A stretch of 64,000 bases of DNA, from the IMG/VR virus record IMGVR_UViG_3300008516_000159; one strand, 5' to 3'. Source of the DNA: a virus. The position numbers and the translations under genes are program-made. Below are positions 2,936 to 62,424 of this stretch, in pieces. The first letter of the stretch is position 1. Each line of letters begins with the position of its first letter. The notes under the pieces are model-generated. The model searched no databases, was not told where the DNA came from, and saw nothing but the letters and a program-made list of their open reading frames with translations.

Positions 2936-3361
2936 CTAACCAGTATGGCCGAAACCACCGCTGCTGCGATCTGTTTCGCTTAGGCTCATGTCTGTCGATA
3001 TAGACGGATGAATAACCTCAGCGAATACCATTTGAGCTATGCGATCTCCTGCTCTGATTTTGTATGGTGACGGACTATGGTTAATTATGAGAACCTTGAT
3101 CTCGCCCCTGTAATCACTATCTACGGTTCCGGGAGCGTTGAGGACTGTGAGCCCGTGATTGACAGCCAAACCGCTTCTCGGCCTAATCTGAGCTTCCATG
3201 TTCTGACTCATTGACATTCTGAGACCGGTTGGAACTAGCTTAAAGCGCTCAGCGCCAATCGTTACATCTTCAGAAGCATAAATATCATATCCACTGGAGC
3301 CATCGGTTTGTCTCTCTGGTGCTCTGGCGTTATCATTCAACAACTCAAATTCAACTAGCAT
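2936..3361 (-). CDS. dut: trimeric dUTPase
   Basis: Motifs SGYDI, RSGLA, GTVDSDYRGEI, RIAQ, DRSSGGFGHTG. Confidence 0.97.
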   Translation of the reverse strand: MLVEFELLNDNARAPERQTDGSSGYDIYASEDVTIGAERFKLVPTGLRMSMSQNMEAQIRPRSGLAVNHGLTVLNAPGTVDSDYRGEIKVLIINHSPSPYKIRAGDRIAQMVFAEVIHPSISTDMSLSETDRSSGGFGHTG

Positions 3362-3370
3362 GTCTTCTCC

Positions 3371-3469
3371 TTATTTCTTTTTCTTCTTATGTCTATCTCT
3401 TCTGCGTCGCTTTTTAAGCTTATGGGTTTTCACCTTCTGTCTGTGCCACTTTTTAGCCGAACGCGAAAT
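3371..3469 (-). CDS. 32-aa basic ribosomal protein bS22/mS38 (AURKAIP1/COX24)-like peptide with AUU start
   Basis: (M)SRSAKKWHRQKVKTHKLKKRRRRDRHKKKKK. AGGAG lies 7 nt before ATT and there is no in-frame ATG back to the previous stop. The TAA overlaps the SD of dut. Confidence 0.7.
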   Translation of the reverse strand: MSRSAKKWHRQKVKTHKLKKRRRRDRHKKKKK

Positions 3470-3495
3470 AAGTTTACTCCTTTGTGTGTTATGAG

Positions 3496-3503
3496 TATAT
3501 ATG
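3496..3503 (-). promoter_or_regulatory. CATATATA putative phage-sigma promoter
   Basis: Recurrent intergenic motif, here about 27 nt before the AUU start. Confidence 0.55.
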
Positions 3504-3843
3504 TTTTATACTTGGACTAAAAAATTGTCATTAGAAGGCTGGTAATCTATTAGGATAAAAGCAGAATCATCTCTGAAAGGGTTGATCTCTGTAACATCGG
3601 GACCATGGATTATTATTTCATGCTTTATTGCGATAGGTTTTTTAGTGGAAGGGCCATAGAAAAATTTTGGTCGATTGCTCCTATAATCGACGAGATCAAA
3701 ATTATTTATCTTTATTTCTAGCTCTTTTTCTACTTCTTTTATGAGGAAGTTCCGTATCGATTTTGGCCAACGCCACGATGGTGTGCATATGGATATCAAG
3801 AGAAAGGCTCGTTTCATGTAGGAAGTGCGTTCTGTAGATGTCA

Positions 3844-15606: not shown

Positions 15607-16605
15607 TTACACATTAAGAAATTTTGCTTCTTCGCGGGTGATGTAATCTTCGTGCTCTTCTTCCTCACGATAGTTGGTAACTCTATCAATGGCTTTACCC
15701 TTGTATTTATCGATCACCTTGTCGATACTCAAACCTGCCGCAACAGTTATATAGAGAATAGTATCATAGTTGTTTCGAATAATACCCGAAAGGATCCTCG
15801 CACTCTTCGCTCTGCCACTGATCTTTTTGGTTACTTCTACAAGTTTGTTGGCTTCGGCATCAACGTCTGCGTTCTTAATCTTACTGTAGACTGAACGGGC
15901 GATTAAAACGTTCTTTGCTTCGTTGATTCTGCCGTAGCTGATAAACTTGACAGCTTCTTCTTCCAGATTTGAGAAAGAAACATTAACGAAGCCGCCGGCA
16001 TAAGAAATCGAAGTTGTTTCAAGATGGTCGATTGACAGCGGGCTATATAAGCTTGGATCATTAAGCTCGTCGTTCATATTGACGACGCACTTGACGCTGC
16101 CGATGATGTGTTCATTGATATTGGAGAAATCGCGTTCCGCAAACTTGCCAATATCTTCGTTGGAGAACAGCATAATCGAGCACTTGTCCTGAAACTCATT
16201 GAACCTCTGCATCGCTCTGACAGCATTAGCTGTGGCTGGAATCGACTCTGAGAGGAATGGGAGAATGCCGACAAAAAGGATCTTGTTTCTTTGGCGCAAC
16301 AGAGGCATTAGAACCGACTTAATCGAAGAACTGCCGCTGCCACCTCCAAGGGCCGCAAATATAACAACCTTTGTCCTTACGTAGGGCTCAAGTACTTTTT
16401 CTACTTCTTCTTTGTTCTCGCCCCAAATCTTAAGGCCTAGATTATAATTACGACCGGATCCGTCTCTGGAAAGTTCGATGTTGTTGGTTAGTCCAACTTC
16501 ATCTTCGAGTGCGGTGTTAAATGTGATAATTTCATCATCTTTGCTCTTAAAGAGCTCGGCGAGTCGCGAGCCGGTTTGCCCGCAACCCAATAATAAGCGC
16601 TTCAT
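15607..16605 (-). CDS. tubulin/FtsZ-family GTPase (PhuZ/TubZ-like)
   Basis: LLGCGQTGSRL (G1 loop), AALGGGSGSS signature, GILPF..E...A..NA, acidic C-terminal tail. Confidence 0.85.
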   Translation of the reverse strand: MKRLLLGCGQTGSRLAELFKSKDDEIITFNTALEDEVGLTNNIELSRDGSGRNYNLGLKIWGENKEEVEKVLEPYVRTKVVIFAALGGGSGSSSIKSVLMPLLRQRNKILFVGILPFLSESIPATANAVRAMQRFNEFQDKCSIMLFSNEDIGKFAERDFSNINEHIIGSVKCVVNMNDELNDPSLYSPLSIDHLETTSISYAGGFVNVSFSNLEEEAVKFISYGRINEAKNVLIARSVYSKIKNADVDAEANKLVEVTKKISGRAKSARILSGIIRNNYDTILYITVAAGLSIDKVIDKYKGKAIDRVTNYREEEEHEDYITREEAKFLNV

Positions 16606-25359: not shown

Positions 25360-27468
25360 TCATATCTCAGGCACCATTATTTTGTTTATAATGAGATCAC
25401 CATCCCGCATCTTGCCCATTTTGAAAACCAAAACTTTATTTTTGATCAGGTTACGAGCACTTTCGTTAAATTGATGCGCAAACAACGGATAACGCCTTAC
25501 TCCGTTCTCATCCCTAATCGATACAAAAGCCATCATGTTGCCGTTTCTATCGCGCTTTCTTGTTACATCAGTTATAATGCCGATCAAAGCCCTACTATCA
25601 AGCATGCTTTTCAGCTGTGCTATCTCATCGGCCTTTTCTTCATACAGTATCATTGATATATCCAATGTCAATAAGTCCTGTAATAACTCCAGCTTTTCCT
25701 GCTTGTTCCAATCTGTTCCTTCCCTGGTCTTGATGAACTGTTCAAATGGAACTTTTGCGCCCTTCTTGCGCCACTCATCATAGTTAGTATACAGCGTCCT
25801 GCGATTGCCGTAAAGCTTATCAAAAGCGCCCGCTTGTATCAAGCTGTCAAGAACCCTCTTGTTTACTTTCGTGCCGGTTTTGTGCTCCTTCAATTTGGTG
25901 AAAAAGTCAGTAATACTCTCATGAGGCGCGTGCTCGGAAATCCATTTAGCGGGAACCACGCCGCAGTTCTTGACATGGCTCAATCCATAAATGACGGTCT
26001 TGTCGTCTATAATGCTAAAGTGCGTTTTACTTTTGTTTACGTCCGGATATAATACTTCTATACCAAGCTGCTTACATTCAGCAGTCAGCCTATCCACAGG
26101 GGTTTTGTCAGAGTTCAACGAGGCGCACATAAACTCAACAGGATAATGGACCTTGAGCCACGCGGTGTAATACGCAATGGTCGCATACGATAAAGAGTGG
26201 CTGCGGTTGAACTGGTAACCGGTCTGTTTGATAAGATATTCCCACAGCAGCCTCGTCTCTTTCTGATTTCTGTTTTTCTTTTGACAGCCCTCGAAGAACT
26301 CCTGCTCCCACTTCTTTTTACCCTTGGTGTCATTCTTGAACTTGGAGTGCCATTTTTCCATATAGCGCCTGAGTGAGTCCGCGCGGCCCAAACTAATTCC
26401 GGATGCCATGTGCGCAATGTTGATGGTTTGTTCCTGGAACACCAATAGACCCAAAGTAGGTTTTAATACCTCTTCTAGAACAGGATGCGCATACTTGATC
26501 TCCTCTTCGCCGTGTCTGCGTTTGATGTAGTTGTTTATAATAGGAATAGAACCTGGCCTGAATAAAGCATTCATGATTACAATATCCTCAAATATTTTAG
26601 GTTTCAGCTTTTGTAAATAACCTTTCATCGATGGACTTTCAAACTGAAACACAGAGGTGGTCAGGCCTTTGCCAAATAATTTATAAACATCTGGAACCTC
26701 GAAGTTTATATTATGTATGTCTATTTCTTTTCCATGCCTCTCCTTTATAAAGTCCAGCGTATCATGAATAATTTTGAGAGTAGACAGTCCGAGTATGTCA
26801 AGCTTCAACAGTTTCATTTCTGCTATTGACTCACCATCAAACTCAGTCAAAAGCATGTCATCATCCCTGTTGTACTGACATGGAATATATTTTTGGACAG
26901 CCTTGTCCGCTATGATGATGGCGGCTGCGTGTTTGCCATAGTTACGCATCTGTCCTAACAGTTTCTCAGCAAACTTGAAGATTTCAGGATACTGGTGATA
27001 AGCGCTGCTTTCGTTCCAGTTAGTTTCGTCTATGTTCTTGGATATAGCAATAGCTTTCTGGGCGGGTATACCATGTATTCTCGCGGAATCCTGAAAAGCT
27101 GACTTGATGGAATAAGTAATGACGTTACACACCTGAGCGACGTTCGTCTGACCAAATCTTCGCTTGATGTAATCAATGACATCACCTCTGCGGGCATCTT
27201 CAAAATCAATGTCTATATCAGGAGCTTTGCCAGATATCGTCAATTTTTCAGGTTCGTCATTTATGGGATCATGATGAATGTATCCCAACAAATACCAAAT
27301 CAGGATATTGGGATGCGGGTCGGTTCCGTTATCAACATCTTTCAAAAGGTTGGTGTGAGTTATGATCTCATATTTCTTGAACTCTTTTAGTTCATAATCC
27401 AATCGCTGGCGATGCTTCTCGTCGTTTATGCCTTTTTCTTTCAACAGGCGGTATAGTTTTTCTTTCAT
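25360..27468 (-). CDS. dnaE: DNA polymerase III alpha, C-terminal part (catalytic palm, fingers, HhH, OB)
   Basis: APDIDIDF, GKHAAAIII, KLDILGL, VFQFES, GYQFNRSH, OB fold. No PHP domain and no GRGS. Confidence 0.95.
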   Translation of the reverse strand: MKEKLYRLLKEKGINDEKHRQRLDYELKEFKKYEIITHTNLLKDVDNGTDPHPNILIWYLLGYIHHDPINDEPEKLTISGKAPDIDIDFEDARRGDVIDYIKRRFGQTNVAQVCNVITYSIKSAFQDSARIHGIPAQKAIAISKNIDETNWNESSAYHQYPEIFKFAEKLLGQMRNYGKHAAAIIIADKAVQKYIPCQYNRDDDMLLTEFDGESIAEMKLLKLDILGLSTLKIIHDTLDFIKERHGKEIDIHNINFEVPDVYKLFGKGLTTSVFQFESPSMKGYLQKLKPKIFEDIVIMNALFRPGSIPIINNYIKRRHGEEEIKYAHPVLEEVLKPTLGLLVFQEQTINIAHMASGISLGRADSLRRYMEKWHSKFKNDTKGKKKWEQEFFEGCQKKNRNQKETRLLWEYLIKQTGYQFNRSHSLSYATIAYYTAWLKVHYPVEFMCASLNSDKTPVDRLTAECKQLGIEVLYPDVNKSKTHFSIIDDKTVIYGLSHVKNCGVVPAKWISEHAPHESITDFFTKLKEHKTGTKVNKRVLDSLIQAGAFDKLYGNRRTLYTNYDEWRKKGAKVPFEQFIKTREGTDWNKQEKLELLQDLLTLDISMILYEEKADEIAQLKSMLDSRALIGIITDVTRKRDRNGNMMAFVSIRDENGVRRYPLFAHQFNESARNLIKNKVLVFKMGKMRDGDLIINKIMVPEI

Positions 27469-29984: not shown

Positions 29985-31962
29985 GTTATTTTCCTTTGCT
30001 TTTGGTGATTTCGACTTTAAACTTCCGACAGTATACAACCGTAAACTCAGACAGTTGTCCACATTCTTTTTTATGCCGGCATTGCCTACACTTTTTTGCT
30101 AACAGCTCATTTGGCGTTTCAGTTCGCTTTTTGCCCATCTGATAAATCCTCCGAAATCAACATCATGGTCGTGTGGAAAATGCGTATCCTCAGAATGCTC
30201 AGCCCAATCTATAGCACATTTTAAATCGTAATCACCATAATGAATGTCTTTTTTCAAACCCCAATTTTCACCATTACAGTAATCTCTATAAGCCATTAAC
30301 ATGACTCTACAAATCGCCATTTTCTGCTTCCTACACTATAACTCTTTACATTAGATATTGAATTACTCCGTCGACTTGAAATGCGCAGGAATTAATATAC
30401 GGACTGAGATAAACTGGAGCTTTATTAAAGTTACCTACCTGGTGTACGCCAATACTTGACGCAACTTTAATTGGCTCGAATTCATCGAACTCCACCATAG
30501 CCTTATAGCCCTCTAAACTAAGAATGATCCAATTCATTTTTAAAAACACCTTCGAAAGAGAATCTCCTATTACATTTCTTACAGAGACAAGAAATCGTGA
30601 GTCTATTCTGATCTACTCCTGTAAAATATGCAACTAAAGTTGTCTCCTCAGACTGTTCTATATCTTTACCATCACAATCTACATAAGCACACTCTTCTAT
30701 TCTGATCATTTACTTTCCGCCTTCTATTCAGGTTCGATTACGACTTGTTCCTCGTGCTTAAACTCAAAAGCAAAGCCACACGTTACGCATTCTGCCCTGT
30801 AACCGGCCGTGAAACAGCCATCATCGGCCAGATAGAACTCATAATCCTCACGCAATGATTCATCAAGCTTTATCGGCTCTCTTGATTCCAACAACAAGGC
30901 TTCATATGCCTCTGGTGTCAATTTTCCATAGCCAGCTCTTGCTTTTTTTGAAAGATCCTCTGCTTTACTTTCTGCCATCTTAAGACACCTTGGGCATGTT
31001 GTCCAATTATCTGCACTCATTTTTCCTCCTTTAGTTTACGTATACAACGGCGCAACCCATAAAACTCGAGTTTACATTCGCAGCAATAAAACAGGCATTT
31101 TCCTTTGCCCCATTCAACCGCGGTTACTGTGTGTCCTTGGTGCTCGCTGTATCGCGCTATATATTTATATTTCATCTTTTGTTTGTCATGTCAATCCCCA
31201 AGGCCATAAACACACCACCAAAAAAGCATCCACCTATAGACAACCAGAGGGCCAGCATCGAGTGGCCCGTTTCTATAAGAGTTGGATCTTTGAGAAAAAC
31301 CCATAATGATATAAATCCAGACCCGCCAAACACGCCACACAGTAGGCAAAGTGGCATAAATATCATTGCCCAATTAATCTTTTCCATCTCACCTTTCCTT
31401 TAGTTCACTAAAAGAAATGTGCTTTTCTTTTAATGCTTCGAGCCTTATTAAAGCTCTATCTGCCGATTTATTATTGCCTGTCCTGTAAGCTGTGCATAAA
31501 TCCTTATAGATGCTAACTTCTTTTTCGAGTCTTTGGATGCAAATGTGGTGTTCTTCTCTCTCTGATAACCACAATCCTTCTTCAGCGGTCCGTAATTCAT
31601 CGTTCTCCAACTGAAGCTTTTGAATACAAGCTTCTGCCTGCTGCAACGCTCCTTCAAGCGCTTGTGCATCTACGCCCGATAAGGGTTTCCGTTGTTTACA
31701 TGCCGCTCGTATTGTCAATTTGTTCATCTTTTTTTTACCTTCAGAGCTCTTTGGATAACGGGGTCGGGAAATCCTCGCCACGAAGAATCTTCTCCATTGT
31801 CTCGACGATGTTTACGCCAATGTGAAATAACACCTAGGTGAATAGTGTTTCTTCTTCCTTCTACAACTTTTCCACATTCCGAACATGTCCAAGTATCTCT
31901 GCACCTACTTTCTTGCAGTCCCACCTTATATTTCCTTATCTTTTTTCAAGGTCTGCTCCATC

Positions 31963-32349: not shown

Positions 32350-33570
32350 TTATCCTAAGAATTTTATTGTTTTACCGCCTAATCTTTCTGGATTTAAGAA
32401 GCGCTCAAACTGTAACTTGTGTACAATAGGATCAACATCTGTTATGTTCAGGGCATAGGCTATAAGAGATCCTGCTGCGCTTCCCCTGCCAGGTCCTACA
32501 TAAATATTTTCAGACTTGGCCCAGCCAACTATATCTGCCACTACTAAGAAATAAGAAGAAAATCCTGCGCTATAGATGATCTTGAGTTCATAAGCCAATC
32601 TCATCATGTAGGTGTCATTTCGCAAGCATCTCCTATCCAGACCCTCTACGCACTTTTTGCGGAGTATCTCATCAAGGTCGGCGCCCTCGAACTCTGGAAT
32701 AGGAGGCACGATATAATCATGCTGCTTAATATCAAACACCTCTATTTTATCGGCTATCTTTACGGTCGTATCACACCACCCCTCAATGTCCTTTTTATCG
32801 TAGCCGGTGTTTATGCCTTCTCTGATGATTTCTTCTCTTGAGTGCAAATATATATTGTCTTCGTCGAATTGAAGCCCTTTGTCGTCGCCTACTTTACCGC
32901 CAGTATTGACCAACAGCAGTTTGGCGTGATCGTCTTTCTGATCTGCCGTTATATAGTGGGCATCAGCGGTGATAATGGCTGGAACCTTCAACATTTTCCA
33001 GAACTTGTATAGTTTTATTTCTATGGCTTTTAATCTCTCGGTCTGATGTGGTTGAAACTCTATATAAAAGTCATCGCCAAATACATCAAGATACCAATCT
33101 AGGTTCCTCTTGGCCGCTTTTATATCATTGTTTATCAACATGCTTGTTACATCGTTGGCAAGACAGGCGGTTGTGGCTATTATATTTTTACTGTACGCCT
33201 TCAAGGTCTCTCTATCTATACGCGGTCTTTTATAAAAACCATAACGATGACCAATATATTGCATCTGCATTATGTTACGATAACCTTCGATGTTTTTCGC
33301 CAACAGTACAACATGAAAACGTTTTTCTCCCTTTGGTTTGACTTTCAGATCATCAACCATATAGGCCTCAACACCTATCAACGGTTTGATCTTGTATTTC
33401 TCGGCAAGGTGCCAGAACTCATAAACTCCTGACATTGTTCCATGATCGGTTATAGCTAAGGCAGGCTGCCTTAGTTCTTCTGCTACATACTTAAGGCGTG
33501 CTTTTTTCGTCCCTAGCCCATCGAGTGCACTAGAATCGGTGTGTACGTGAAGATTTACGAAGTTATCCAT
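32350..33570 (-). CDS. dnaE: DNA polymerase III alpha, N-terminal part (PHP domain plus palm start)
   Basis: HVHT, ITDHG, GVEAY, DAHY, GPGRGSAAGSL, FERFLNPER, then ends before PDIDID. Confidence 0.95.
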   Translation of the reverse strand: MDNFVNLHVHTDSSALDGLGTKKARLKYVAEELRQPALAITDHGTMSGVYEFWHLAEKYKIKPLIGVEAYMVDDLKVKPKGEKRFHVVLLAKNIEGYRNIMQMQYIGHRYGFYKRPRIDRETLKAYSKNIIATTACLANDVTSMLINNDIKAAKRNLDWYLDVFGDDFYIEFQPHQTERLKAIEIKLYKFWKMLKVPAIITADAHYITADQKDDHAKLLLVNTGGKVGDDKGLQFDEDNIYLHSREEIIREGINTGYDKKDIEGWCDTTVKIADKIEVFDIKQHDYIVPPIPEFEGADLDEILRKKCVEGLDRRCLRNDTYMMRLAYELKIIYSAGFSSYFLVVADIVGWAKSENIYVGPGRGSAAGSLIAYALNITDVDPIVHKLQFERFLNPERLGGKTIKFLG

Positions 33571-53308: not shown

Positions 53309-55081
53309 ATGCTCTTCTTGGGTGTAGAAATAAAAAACCGTTCAGTATTAGCATCCGGCATTTTAGGCTTATCGGCCGCGGCACTATCAAGAGTTCACAA
53401 AGAAGGAGCTGGCATAGTCACCAGTAAATCTATCGGACCTAAAAAAAGAGCGGGCCACCATGGCCCTGTTGTGTTTGACTGGGGCGAGGGACTGGTGAAT
53501 GCTGTCGGTTTATCTAATCCGGGCATAGACGCTTTTATCACACAATTCGAAAGATGCGATATAAACTTTCCTGTAATCATTTCCATATACGGCTCAATAG
53601 AAGAAGACTTTGAAATCATAGCTGAAAAACTCAAAAGGATCCGTCATGATTTCATAGAGCTTAACCTTTCCTGCCCCAACACATTAACTGAATTCGGCAC
53701 ACCCTTTGCCTACTCTGCTGCGGCAACCGCGGTTATTGTAAATGGGGTCAAGAGAGCGACAGACAAGCCCGTCATCGCCAAACTCAGCCCAAACACAAGC
53801 GAATTGAACAATATAGCCAAAGCTGCTGAGGCAGCTGGAGCAGACGCGCTATGTGTAATGAACAGTGTGGGTCCTGGTATGATTATAGATACCAACACCG
53901 CGGTGCCTGTGCTAGGAAATAAAATGGGCGGTGTTTCAGGCAAGGCTATACTGCCGTTAACTATCAAAAATGTGCATGAGCTATATAAAAAAGTCAGAAT
54001 TCCAATTATAGGCACAGGCGGCGTCACAGATACAGATAGCGCGCTGCAAGTATTAATGGCTGGCGCTACACTATATGGCATCGGCAGTGCGATTTATCAA
54101 AGAGACCTTGGTGTGTTCAAAGAAATAGATAATGGCATTCACCAGTTCATGGTAAACAATAACATAACAGAAAGTGAGGAATTGATTGGTCTATCTCACA
54201 AGCAAGCTATACATTCCTTTTATCAGACGACACATAAAAAACATCACTCCAAAATGGCTGTCCTGCCTATTACCGAAATAGAAAGGGATAATAGTGATAA
54301 AATTATTACCGTATATTTTGATGCTCACGAACTAAAAGAGTACCAGCGAAATCCAACACAGCCATTGCCGGGACAGTTCTACATGTTATGGCTTCCTGAG
54401 GCAGATCAAAAGCCATATTCTGTGTCATACTATAACGACGGACGCATTGGCTTTACGGTCAAACTAAGAGGTTGCTTTTCCAAGAAACTGTTTGAGGCCA
54501 AAGAAGGAGATCCCATAGGATTGTTGGGACCATTGGGCAGTCCATTCGGTCTGGATTATGATAACTATTTATTGGTAGGCGGCGGTATTGGCTGTGCACC
54601 TATGTTGTTTGCCGCGGCAGAGTTATATAAATCTGGTAAAAAGTTCAATCTATTCGTAGGTGCTGAAGAAAAACCATGGCTGAAGTGGGTTGAGCCTCTA
54701 TTAAACAAGACTGTACCGTGTAGTAAAGATTTAATTACGTACTGCACTGAAGACGGCTCGTGGGGCCACAAAGGTATGATAACAGATTGGTTGAAATACA
54801 CAGTCAAACGCGAAAAACCTGATTATACATTATTATGCGGCCCTGAACTGTTCACCAAGAAAGCTATTCACATACTCACAGACATGAAAATGCTTGGTCA
54901 AGCAAGCATAGAGCGCATGATGAAATGCGGCATCGGTATCTGCGGTTCCTGTTCAGTAGATCACACAGGAGATCGCGTCTGCGTTGAAGGACCTATGTTT
55001 GACTTTGATTACCTGCTACAAATGAAAGAGTTTGGTTCTTACTTTATGGATGAAACCGGCGCGGTAATCCAGCAAAGATAA
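53309..55081 (+). CDS. pyrD: dihydroorotate dehydrogenase family 1B fused to its electron-transfer subunit (PyrD-PyrK)
   Basis: NAVGLSNPG, ELNLSCPN, KLSPN, GGVSG, IGTGG, then PGQF, GPLG, GGGIG, MKCGIGICGSC...VCVEGP. Strong GGAGG SD. Confidence 0.95.
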   Translation: MLFLGVEIKNRSVLASGILGLSAAALSRVHKEGAGIVTSKSIGPKKRAGHHGPVVFDWGEGLVNAVGLSNPGIDAFITQFERCDINFPVIISIYGSIEEDFEIIAEKLKRIRHDFIELNLSCPNTLTEFGTPFAYSAAATAVIVNGVKRATDKPVIAKLSPNTSELNNIAKAAEAAGADALCVMNSVGPGMIIDTNTAVPVLGNKMGGVSGKAILPLTIKNVHELYKKVRIPIIGTGGVTDTDSALQVLMAGATLYGIGSAIYQRDLGVFKEIDNGIHQFMVNNNITESEELIGLSHKQAIHSFYQTTHKKHHSKMAVLPITEIERDNSDKIITVYFDAHELKEYQRNPTQPLPGQFYMLWLPEADQKPYSVSYYNDGRIGFTVKLRGCFSKKLFEAKEGDPIGLLGPLGSPFGLDYDNYLLVGGGIGCAPMLFAAAELYKSGKKFNLFVGAEEKPWLKWVEPLLNKTVPCSKDLITYCTEDGSWGHKGMITDWLKYTVKREKPDYTLLCGPELFTKKAIHILTDMKMLGQASIERMMKCGIGICGSCSVDHTGDRVCVEGPMFDFDYLLQMKEFGSYFMDETGAVIQQR

Positions 55082-56486: not shown

Positions 56487-56863
56487 GATATCATGAAAAA
56501 CGGTCTATCTAGCCAATGTTGGATTCTGTATATATGAAAGAATATTGAAAAATAAAGCTTGCGCAAAATAGGATTACTTTTAGAGCCCATTATGGAATCA
56601 ACCTTCCTGTGGGCTCTCATTTGTAAACCACAATAAGTATCCATCCCAAGACCCATTGAGCCTAGTTTTTCAATCTTGGCTGATACATCAGGGTCATTTT
56701 CGCGGCCCTTGTGCTGGTCGAGGTAATCGCACACTTTATCAGACGGCTTGCCTACTATACGATTCCAAATCTTGTCTACTATTTTGCCAAACAGTTTGAA
56801 ACACATATCGCTTCTCCTTGTTATTATAATATCACACACTCCTCTTTTTGTAAAGCATTAATT

Positions 56864-56935
56864 AGCCCCTACTCGGATTCGAACCGAGATAAGATGGTTT
56901 TAGAAACCACCGCCTAACCATTCGGCCATAGGGAC
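56864..56935 (-). tRNA. amber suppressor tRNA (anticodon CUA), Cys-like body, U73
   Basis: GTCCCTA/TAGGGGC acceptor, GTGGT-TTCTAAA-ACCAT anticodon arm, CTCGG-TTCGAAT-CCGAG T-arm. No encoded CCA. Confidence 0.9.
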
Positions 56936-56939
56936 ACAA

Positions 56940-56957
56940 GCCGGTATCTCTACCGGC
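56940..56957 (-). other. perfect 7-bp GNRA hairpin immediately 5' of the suppressor tRNA
   Basis: GCCGGTA-GAGA-TACCGGC, between a CATATATA motif and the tRNA. Confidence 0.7.
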
Positions 56958-56959
56958 TA

Positions 56960-56967
56960 TATATATG
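56960..56967 (-). promoter_or_regulatory. CATATATA putative promoter of the suppressor tRNA
   Basis: Recurrent motif, 25 nt before the tRNA 5' end. Confidence 0.55.
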
Positions 56968-57995
56968 TTACCTCTTCAGTTCCCAAAGACGAATTTTACC
57001 ATCGGTTTCGCCCTTGATAAACATACCGCTTTTGCGTACAGCCTGACACTGCCCTATATTCATACGTTTGACTTCATCGCCTAGCACAAAATCCATGGTT
57101 AATTGAGACCACCGACCTGAGGAAAGATCTTCTCTTATGTGCCAACCATTCTGGATCATTCTGATAACAGAGATCGTGCTGTGCTCGGTTGAATCTTCAA
57201 CAAACTTTTCGACTTCCTTGGCTACTTTCTCGAAGCTTTTGATATAATCATTAATCTTGCTTTTGAGGGTATTGCCTTCGTAGCCTGGGAAATCCAGTCG
57301 TATCTTCGAGTAATCTCCATCATGGTCCCATATCCAACTTTGATAGTCCATGGTTATAATATCCACCTTGCTGCCCCTCGTAGATATCACAAGCTCGTCG
57401 CCTTCAATATACTGATACGCGCCATCCCAGTAGCCAGGCTTTTGCTCCAAATTGAATATCGCACCACCTGGCACCCTGACATAATCTTCGGGGCTTTCTT
57501 TTTGCAATAGCGCAATAAGTTCTTTTACTTTCATACCGTTAACAACTCCTTCGCGGCACACTTGCGAGCTCTAGGGGGAACATAAGGCGCTTCTGCCCAA
57601 ACGATAACTGTTTGTCCTAACTCATTGTGGGTCGTCTTATAACCCCAATTCTTGAGGGTGGTGTGGATATCATTTTCATCGGGCATGTTGTGCTTAGGTT
57701 GTTCAATCTCGTCGCGTGTTCGGCCACGAATTAAGCAATACGCAATGTGCTGATGACGATATAAATGGCTCAAATTCTTGGGACTGCTTTTGTACATCGC
57801 TTCCATTATGTTCCAGTACGCCTCTTTGAGTCTATCCCAAGCGCCGCGGTGGCGCATCTCTCGGGGTAGACCGCAAACACGCTGAAATCTGGAAAGCGCT
57901 CTTTGTTTTTCTTTGTAAATTGGTTTTGCTTCTTTGATTTGGTGAGCGAGCTCTTTGAGCTCTTCTTTGATTTGTAGATATTCTTTCTTTGTCAT
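56968..57995 (-). CDS. two hypothetical proteins (57531-57995, 56968-57561) downstream of the amber leader
   Basis: 154-aa and 197-aa ORFs; the first carries HIAYCLIRGR..EIEQP. Confidence 0.7.
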
Positions 57996-58106
57996 TGTCT
58001 TTCTCCTATTTGATTTTAATTGGCGTGAATAGGAGCGACAATTACGGTGGTAATAAAGCCTATGTCATTCTGCTTTCCTCCTTTTTGTTACATGTTATTA
58101 TATATG
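57993..58106 (-). promoter_or_regulatory. leader with an amber-containing uORF and an SD/AUG-sequestering hairpin
   Basis: CATATATA, then AGGAGG, ATG ACA TAG GCT TTA TTA CCA CCG TAA, then TTGTC-G-CTCCTATT pairing with AATAGGAG-AAA-GACAA(TG). Confidence 0.65.
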
Positions 58107-62350: not shown

Positions 62351-62424
62351 AGGCCAGGACAGGATTCGGACCTGCATCATCTCGGGTTGCAACCGAGCGC
62401 CTAAGCCATTTCAGCCACCTGGCC
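62351..62424 (-). tRNA. tRNA-Cys(GCA)
   Basis: CTCGG-TTGCAAC-CCGAG anticodon arm; U73; T-loop TCCGAAT. Confidence 0.9.

Follow-up and report, generated by a model that had tools for sequence, protein, structure and literature searches.

The locus and its features

The stretch of phage DNA analysed here ('the window', 64,000 nucleotides, part of its own 191-kb contig) carries on its minus strand, at 56864-56935, a 72-nt tRNA with the anticodon CUA (56901-56903). Both ARAGORN and Rfam return a canonical 7/5 cloverleaf (RF00005 score of 57.4 bits versus a gathering score of 29; E 9e-10), which confirms the fold, the anticodon, the discriminator U73 and the pair G1-C72 given in the original prediction. 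Further features are U2.G71, C3-G70, G13.A22, A15:U48 and a D-arm of the Cys type; CCA is not encoded. The anticodon lies in a loop of seven nucleotides with U33 and a purine at position 37, as is characteristic of an amber suppressor tRNA. Since the same CUA is found in an independent Logan assembly (L002) and in two relatives at roughly 87-90% (L011 and L195), a sequencing error in the anticodon, named at the outset as one way in which the original prediction could fail, is excluded. An extra pair, G26-C44, is not kept in L011.

Two special classes of tRNA were considered and rejected. A tRNA-Pyl has a small D-loop devoid of GG, a T-loop devoid of UUC, a variable loop of 3 nt, an anticodon stem of 6 bp and G73, whereas the window tRNA possesses GG, UUC, a 5-nt variable loop and U73; the label 'Pyl' assigned by ARAGORN derives from the anticodon only. 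Allo-tRNAs, or selC*, have a longer acceptor stem and a shorter T-stem (8/4 or 9/3 acceptor branch; PMC5389517) and are excluded by the 7/5 architecture. Exact DNA patterns of the tRNA gave zero matches in IMG/VR, and blastn against GenBank phages gave weak matches only, the best being a tRNA-Cys (76%, E 0.1). Judged from its sequence, this is a real tRNA, reading UAG by its anticodon, in a large sediment phage that probably keeps the normal genetic code.

The unit to which the tRNA belongs lies entirely on the minus strand and is headed by the promoter-like motif CATATATA (58099-58106), which recurs at the corresponding position in L011 and in G006, a collinear relative (189 kb, 79% complete, helicase 76% identical, with a single CUA tRNA at the same place). 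There follow a Shine-Dalgarno (SD) sequence (GGAGG, 58077-58081) and a leader of nine codons, Met-Thr-UAG-Ala-Leu-Leu-Pro-Pro-UAA (58042-58068), whose UAG at codon 3 (58060-58062) is 1.1 kb upstream of the tRNA. A predicted hairpin (57995-58041) pairs CTCCT with AGGAG, the ribosome binding site (RBS) of a gene for 154 amino acids (57531-57995). In its sequence features, this arrangement, in which a leader carrying an SD of its own is followed by an SD-masking hairpin, has the layout of a leader attenuator; the arrest motifs RAPP or RGPP are present in several relatives, whereas the window leader ends in LLPP-stop. The start of the next gene (56968-57534; 188 aa) overlaps the preceding stop (ATGA), and the two genes are probably translationally coupled. 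In most loci a Pth2-like gene occupies this second place.

The 154-aa protein belongs to a family marked by the motif RHxHIAYC-x-RGR, which comprises 835 representatives at 50% identity and is not matched in Pfam; tblastn did not find the family in GenBank phages. Its model (pLDDT 91) predicts a helical hairpin, for which the structural matches are generic coiled coils only (Z 6.9 or less). The 188-aa protein yielded a poor model without a Foldseek match, and neither model points to a new fold. In L156 the Pth2-like gene is fused to the gated protein.

A second copy of CATATATA (56960-56967, minus strand) stands directly before the tRNA leader, where it had been taken for a promoter of the tRNA's own. 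The motif is a genuine promoter-like element of the phage, with 19 copies on the minus strand of the window against 3.4-4.5 expected, mostly before genes; it is nevertheless common and not peculiar to this tRNA, and only in the narrow lineage of the window does it adjoin a CUA tRNA. The likewise predicted hairpin at the 5' side of the tRNA (56939-56958, minus strand; 8 bp, GAGA loop, 3 nt from G1) is borne out, and its shape is kept in relatives: in each of the five nearest lineages a strong hairpin ends 2-4 nt from G1, and hairpins of unrelated sequence occupy this side in G006, L016, L020 and L142. Such a hairpin accompanies 10 of 26 CUA tRNAs versus 31 of 237 other tRNAs (p 0.002, for tRNAs that are not phylogenetically independent). 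At T4 late promoters the start of transcription lies about 6 nt beyond the motif; with a similar start at CATATATA, the 5' arm would be incomplete in a local transcript, so that the long operon transcript may be the one on which the hairpin acts, through processing, protection or pausing. A sigma-70-like promoter of the next gene (56826-56854, minus strand; 10/12 match, extended -10, similar site in G006) suggests that the tRNA closes the unit.

Elsewhere, the window encodes a phage tmRNA (49943-50297, minus strand) with the tag ANETLALAA (ADENLALAA in G006 and L200), a 590-aa fusion of dihydroorotate dehydrogenase with an electron-transfer subunit (53309-55081, plus strand) that is absent from G006, a DNA polymerase in two pieces corresponding to consecutive parts of phrog_405 (25360-27468 and 32350-33570, minus strand), and a protein of the Tubulin/FtsZ family (15607-16605, minus strand; 73% identical in G006). 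G006 carries a tRNA-Leu(UAA) and a tRNA-Leu(CAA) without the long variable arm (L015:1833-1908 and 2703-2779), the former with a T-stem identical to that of the window tRNA(CUA). In L020, two tRNA calls that are nearly identical (2230-2470; anticodon AAC) show a very small loop region and may be degenerate, and L200, a relative without a CUA tRNA, encodes a 113-aa, ArfB-like RF-1-domain protein with a GGQ motif (3290-3631).

Genetic code of the phage

As originally stated, TAG ends the dut, SLT and RNA ligase genes of the window at sensible places, and deep internal TAGs are absent from its code-15 ORFs of at least 300 aa (ten ORFs, 4445 codons). A TAG extension of 203 codons at 30099 merely enters the next gene. 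The window holds replication and accessory genes only, however, and virion genes are absent; since recoded phages keep their replication genes compatible with code 11 (bioRxiv 10.1101/2021.08.26.457843), such a window cannot decide the matter. The test was made on the structural genes of whole relatives. In G006 the genes for the major capsid protein (503 aa), the portal (857 aa) and the terminase (545 aa) are all open in code 11, and a deep internal TAG is found in only 2 of its 47 long code-15 ORFs (4 in the TGA control), an RBS-like sequence following directly after both TAGs. Three complete, more distant carriers of CUA tRNAs (G001, G015 and G024) use code 11 as well. A Gln-type tRNA body has G73 and a weak 1-72 pair, whereas the window tRNA has U73 and G1-C72. 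By inference from the relatives, wholesale recoding is unlikely. The conclusion originally drawn is supported by the structural genes of G006 and by the comparison of codes 11 and 15 in G006 and the three other carriers, although the evidence from the window, on which it had been founded, is weak.

Amino-acid identity of the tRNA

For the isotype of the window tRNA, a position-wise classifier was used whose training set of 311 phage tRNAs includes only 8 Cys tRNAs and whose leave-one-out accuracy is 70%; the Cys profile was built on 6-8 tRNAs and has a leave-one-out recall of 4-5 of 8. The window tRNA scores 23 bits on this profile, 5 bits for the next isotype and -13.8 bits for Gln; when the Cys tRNAs of its own lineage are left out, 21 bits remain. 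Its Cys score exceeds that of every non-Cys tRNA tested (maximum 11.3). The similarity of its D-arm to the phage's own tRNA-Cys at 62351, pointed out in the original prediction, is corroborated by agreement at 13 of 14 columns of the D region. The acceptor stem agrees at 12 of 14 with the CUA tRNA of L016 (and two Arg tRNAs), and the two matches together suggest that the tRNA is a chimera.

The identity set of bacterial tRNA-Cys includes U73, C3-G70, G2-C71 and the anticodon nucleotides G34, C35 and A36 (PMC9976931). The window tRNA possesses U73, C3-G70 and A36, and lacks G2-C71 (having U2.G71), G34 and C35 (having C34 and U35); most phage Cys tRNAs compared are also devoid of G2-C71. An engineered E. 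coli tRNA-Cys(CUA) apparently stays a substrate of the endogenous CysRS (PMC13449415), and Cys is hence the best single guess for the residue inserted by the window tRNA, with a chance that we put a little short of even. U73 and the CUA anticodon are common to both tRNAs; unlike the engineered one (PMC13449415), the phage tRNA has U2.G71, looks chimeric and has orthologues without Cys features.

The Cys-like character noted at the outset indeed holds for this copy, but it does not extend to the orthologues: the CUA tRNA of G006 scores -15 for Cys, the D-arms of the orthologues are generic, and position 73 is taken by any of the four bases (of 27 CUA tRNAs, 11 have U, 10 A, 4 G and 2 C there), although the nearest ones with the same leader form, G006 and L193, also keep U73. 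The body turns over, and only the invariant anticodon loop (YU-CUA-RM) and, mostly, G1-C72 are conserved. From these comparisons, Cys identity is not conserved and appears to be a local quirk, and the absence of a conserved identity fits a tRNA whose inserted residue would be irrelevant. An origin from tRNA-Trp, hinted at by the anticodon arm, gained no support across the family, the classifier scores being mixed and low. Genes for a phage CysRS or a Glu/Gln synthetase were not found among 17 records, most of which are incomplete.

Conservation of the UAG leader and its tRNA

A UAG leader ending in PP or GP (often KPP, RGPP or RAPP) precedes the gated gene in 24 of 26 distinct loci of the 154-aa family, and that of a 25th, cut by the contig end, looks alike by eye. 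The leader is matched across loci whose proteins share about 30% identity. By comparison, any leader consisting of an SD, an ATG and an early TAG is found at 24 of 1096 genes in four genomes, and one with a PP or GP end at 2, of which one is the module itself. A canonical CUA tRNA is present in 23 of the 26 loci, mostly 0.5-2.8 kb downstream. The other three are L148, whose contig ends after 640 nt, L145, where the D-arm has collapsed, and L200, which is collinear and has the same flanking genes but is devoid of the leader, the 188-aa gene and the CUA tRNA over 18 kb; this co-loss is a single event in a fragment of that length. The degenerate tRNA of L145 (11183-11248) stands beside a retained leader and is intact in the close relative L147.

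At the +4 position, U follows the leader UAG in 1 of 19 cases versus 39 of 116 gene-ending TAGs (p 0.013, for loci that are not independent); +4U lowers readthrough and favours termination (PMC5289835). Back-up stops after gene-ending TAGs are not enriched (median 12 codons, p 0.79), so that nothing at the genome level indicates active suppression. In several loci the Pro-Pro codons partly coincide with the anti-SD, and part of the conservation of this motif may thus act at the RNA level; in the window the two are separate. Among the matches listed, the protein-coding genes of the window have no in-frame TAG conserved with G006.

Constrained folding, with an assumed ribosome footprint, gives the gated RBS of the window a probability of being unpaired of 0.00 on the free RNA; this stays at 0.00 when a ribosome occupies the UAG and rises to 0.66 when one occupies the final stop of the leader. 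In 18 of 20 rows (three rows having an imperfect leader end) the modelled RBS opens with a ribosome at the end of the leader, and the shift with one at the first UAG is 0.07 or less.

In a second design, the early in-frame TAG is found within the Pth2-like gene, at the sixth codon in G001, the second in mycobacteriophage Cane17 and the third in Tenacibaculum phage pT24, and each of these has a CUA tRNA close by. The annotated peptidyl-tRNA hydrolase of Cane17 (L198:3995-4375), 250 nt before the CUA tRNA, starts with GTG right after an SD-ATG-TAG and its annotated start is possibly wrong; 208 mycobacteriophage records matched the Cane17 query. In pT24 the Pth2-like frame (L199:2947-3324) is likewise annotated from a later start, and the CUA tRNA is 2.6 kb upstream. 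Directly behind a CUA tRNA of G001 lies a methyltransferase-like gene (L001:8411-8938) that has a TAG in frame near codon 26, immediately ahead of its EPSAG motif; it may be a second amber-gated gene or a pseudogene. The module is also found on contigs binned into MAGs of Saccharibacteria, Desulfobacteraceae and Thermoplasmatales (L190, L191 and L192), which may be prophages or mis-binned phage DNA.

A proposed translational switch

We consider it likely that the tRNA is a dedicated and probably weak amber suppressor that acts in trans as the key to a translational switch within the unit to which it belongs. The proposal builds on anatomy, conservation, co-occurrence and one co-loss, all read from sequence, and on the modelled opening of the hairpin; charging, readthrough, stalling and purpose we infer. 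Ribosomes would start on the leader and normally stop at the UAG of codon 3, too far ahead of the hairpin to affect it, and the 154-aa gene would remain off. Charged tRNA(CUA) would outcompete RF1 and let a ribosome proceed to the Pro-Pro-stop (R[AG]PP in many relatives), where it would dwell, melt the 5' arm of the hairpin and free the gated RBS; the 154-aa protein would then be made, together with the product of the gene coupled to it, which encodes 188 aa in the window and is Pth2-like in most loci. A Pro-Pro-stop would slow termination, and a ribosome that has read through the UAG and dwells there would hence be held on the 5' arm of the hairpin. RAPP and RGPP are proven arrest motifs (PMC12992588). 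As the residue would be inserted into a throw-away peptide, any host synthetase would suffice and the tRNA body would be free from constraint. The original prediction of a role in regulation or partial readthrough, rather than in wholesale recoding, thereby gains support and a proposed target, the UAG leader at 58042-58068. The purpose is most likely feedback, in which a clean-up or limiting translation function would be made only while suppression is active.

Going further, one may tentatively envisage that in standard-code large phages of many lineages the identity-free suppressor tRNA is the sensor of a circuit asking whether amber suppression is working, that mischarging of this sensor occurs chiefly under conditions that free host synthetases or limit RF1, such as those following the destruction of host tRNAs in anti-phage defence, and that the UAG-gated stalling leader is the readout, switching on a new protein family and a Pth2-like enzyme. 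Taken as a whole, this extension appears to us possible, yet on balance doubtful; if true, it would account for the orphan suppressors of jumbo phages and represent a stepping stone to TAG recoding.

Several other readings have to be weighed against the keyed switch. The leader might sense another signal, such as loss of RF1, a pyrrolysine or suppressor tRNA of the host, or a co-infecting recoded phage, or else uncharged tRNA might hold ribosomes at the UAG. A poorly charged tRNA would agree with the missing synthetase identity, and L145 keeps its leader beside a degenerate tRNA; yet leader and tRNA are tightly linked and were lost together, the model leaves the hairpin closed when a ribosome stands at the first UAG, and the early in-frame TAGs of the Pth2-like genes require true readthrough, so that we regard this reading as unlikely. 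Quite unlikely, in our judgement, is a device specific for Cys, in which a tRNA charged by CysRS would make the switch report cysteine supply or CysRS occupancy, or would place Cys in a protein. U73, C3-G70, the Cys-type D-arm and the 21-23 bits (non-Cys maximum 11.3) speak for it, as do the apparent CysRS charging of the engineered E. coli tRNA-Cys(CUA) (PMC13449415) and the U73 kept in G006 and L193. Against it stand the missing G34, C35 and G2-C71 (PMC9976931), the generic D-arms and four discriminators of the orthologues, the failure to find a protein-coding TAG target in the window or a phage CysRS in the 17 mostly incomplete records, and a profile resting on 6-8 tRNAs with a recall of 4-5 of 8.

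An ordinary code-15 recoding tRNA, with TAG read as Gln in late or structural genes elsewhere in the genome, would be compatible with a window that has no virion genes, given that replication genes of recoded phages stay code-11-compatible, and the verdict 'not recoded' is indeed drawn from relatives rather than from the phage's own structural genes. We nonetheless hold it to be highly improbable in view of the open capsid, portal and terminase genes of G006, where only 2 of 47 ORFs have a deep TAG, of a tRNA devoid of G73 and a weak 1-72 pair that scores about -14 on the Gln profile, and of the failure to find a Glu/Gln synthetase gene in the 17 mostly incomplete records. Suppressor tRNAs in standard-code phages have been read as mutated neutral tRNAs or as general weak suppressors without a target (pre-recoding, rescue of nonsense mutants, interference with the host), and in XacN1 no target was found by C-terminal readthrough (PMC5852040). 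Here, however, the anticodon loop is invariant (YU-CUA-RM) although the body changes, and a matching UAG leader is kept at loci with about 30% protein identity; to this last reading, which we consider largely refuted, only the slightest probability can be given. The keyed switch thus remains the reading that we prefer.

Significance and comparison with known systems

Phage CUA tRNAs are usually taken as the sign of a changed code, and those of standard-code phages, such as XacN1, had no known target. If the proposed switch is real, it would be the natural counterpart of amber-gated switches that synthetic biologists have constructed, with a UAG planted in a regulatory leader, and orphan phage suppressors would become a question for a simple reporter test, for which a related design is at hand in a cultured mycobacteriophage with the host M. 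smegmatis. For annotators, a CUA tRNA implies neither code 15 nor pyrrolysine, and genes with an early TAG, for example phage Pth2, may be mis-started in databases. A literature search, covering few subscription journals, brought up no account of a leader gated by UAG together with its suppressor.

The module has features in common with several known systems. With the Sup-CTA tRNAs of code-15 crAss-like and Lak phages (bioRxiv 10.1101/2021.08.26.457843; 10.1101/2022.06.29.495998), which are probably charged by host synthetases and are proposed to control which genes are made, it shares a phage-encoded CUA tRNA. Unlike there, however, the relatives have no recoded block of genes, the proposed target is one leader codon, the tRNA body is not Gln-like and TAG stays a normal stop; the window tRNA falls outside the class of code-15 suppressors. 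The orphan suppressors of the XacN1 type (PMC5852040) likewise combine a CUA tRNA with a peptidyl-tRNA hydrolase in a large phage using code 11, but no target was found there, where C-terminal readthrough only was examined, whereas a 5' leader is proposed here. In Streptomyces, the bldA tRNA-Leu(UAA) is also a single dedicated tRNA controlling chosen genes via a rare codon (PMC10732093); in that case the codon is the sense codon UUA in regulators of the host, and here it is a stop codon in a phage leader, read in competition with RF1. Translational attenuators with an arrest leader include ermC and SecM. The RAPP/RGPP peptides ApcA, ApdA and ApdP (PMC12992588) belong to the same kind. As in the proposed switch, the position of a ribosome on the leader opens an SD-masking hairpin in such systems, and RGPP or RAPP occurs in many relatives of the window; in the phage module, by contrast, the stall site would be gated by an in-frame UAG and its cognate suppressor tRNA, and the leader of the window ends in LLPP-stop. 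By analogy, the module would work like an arrest-leader attenuator that is locked by a stop codon and keyed by a dedicated tRNA.
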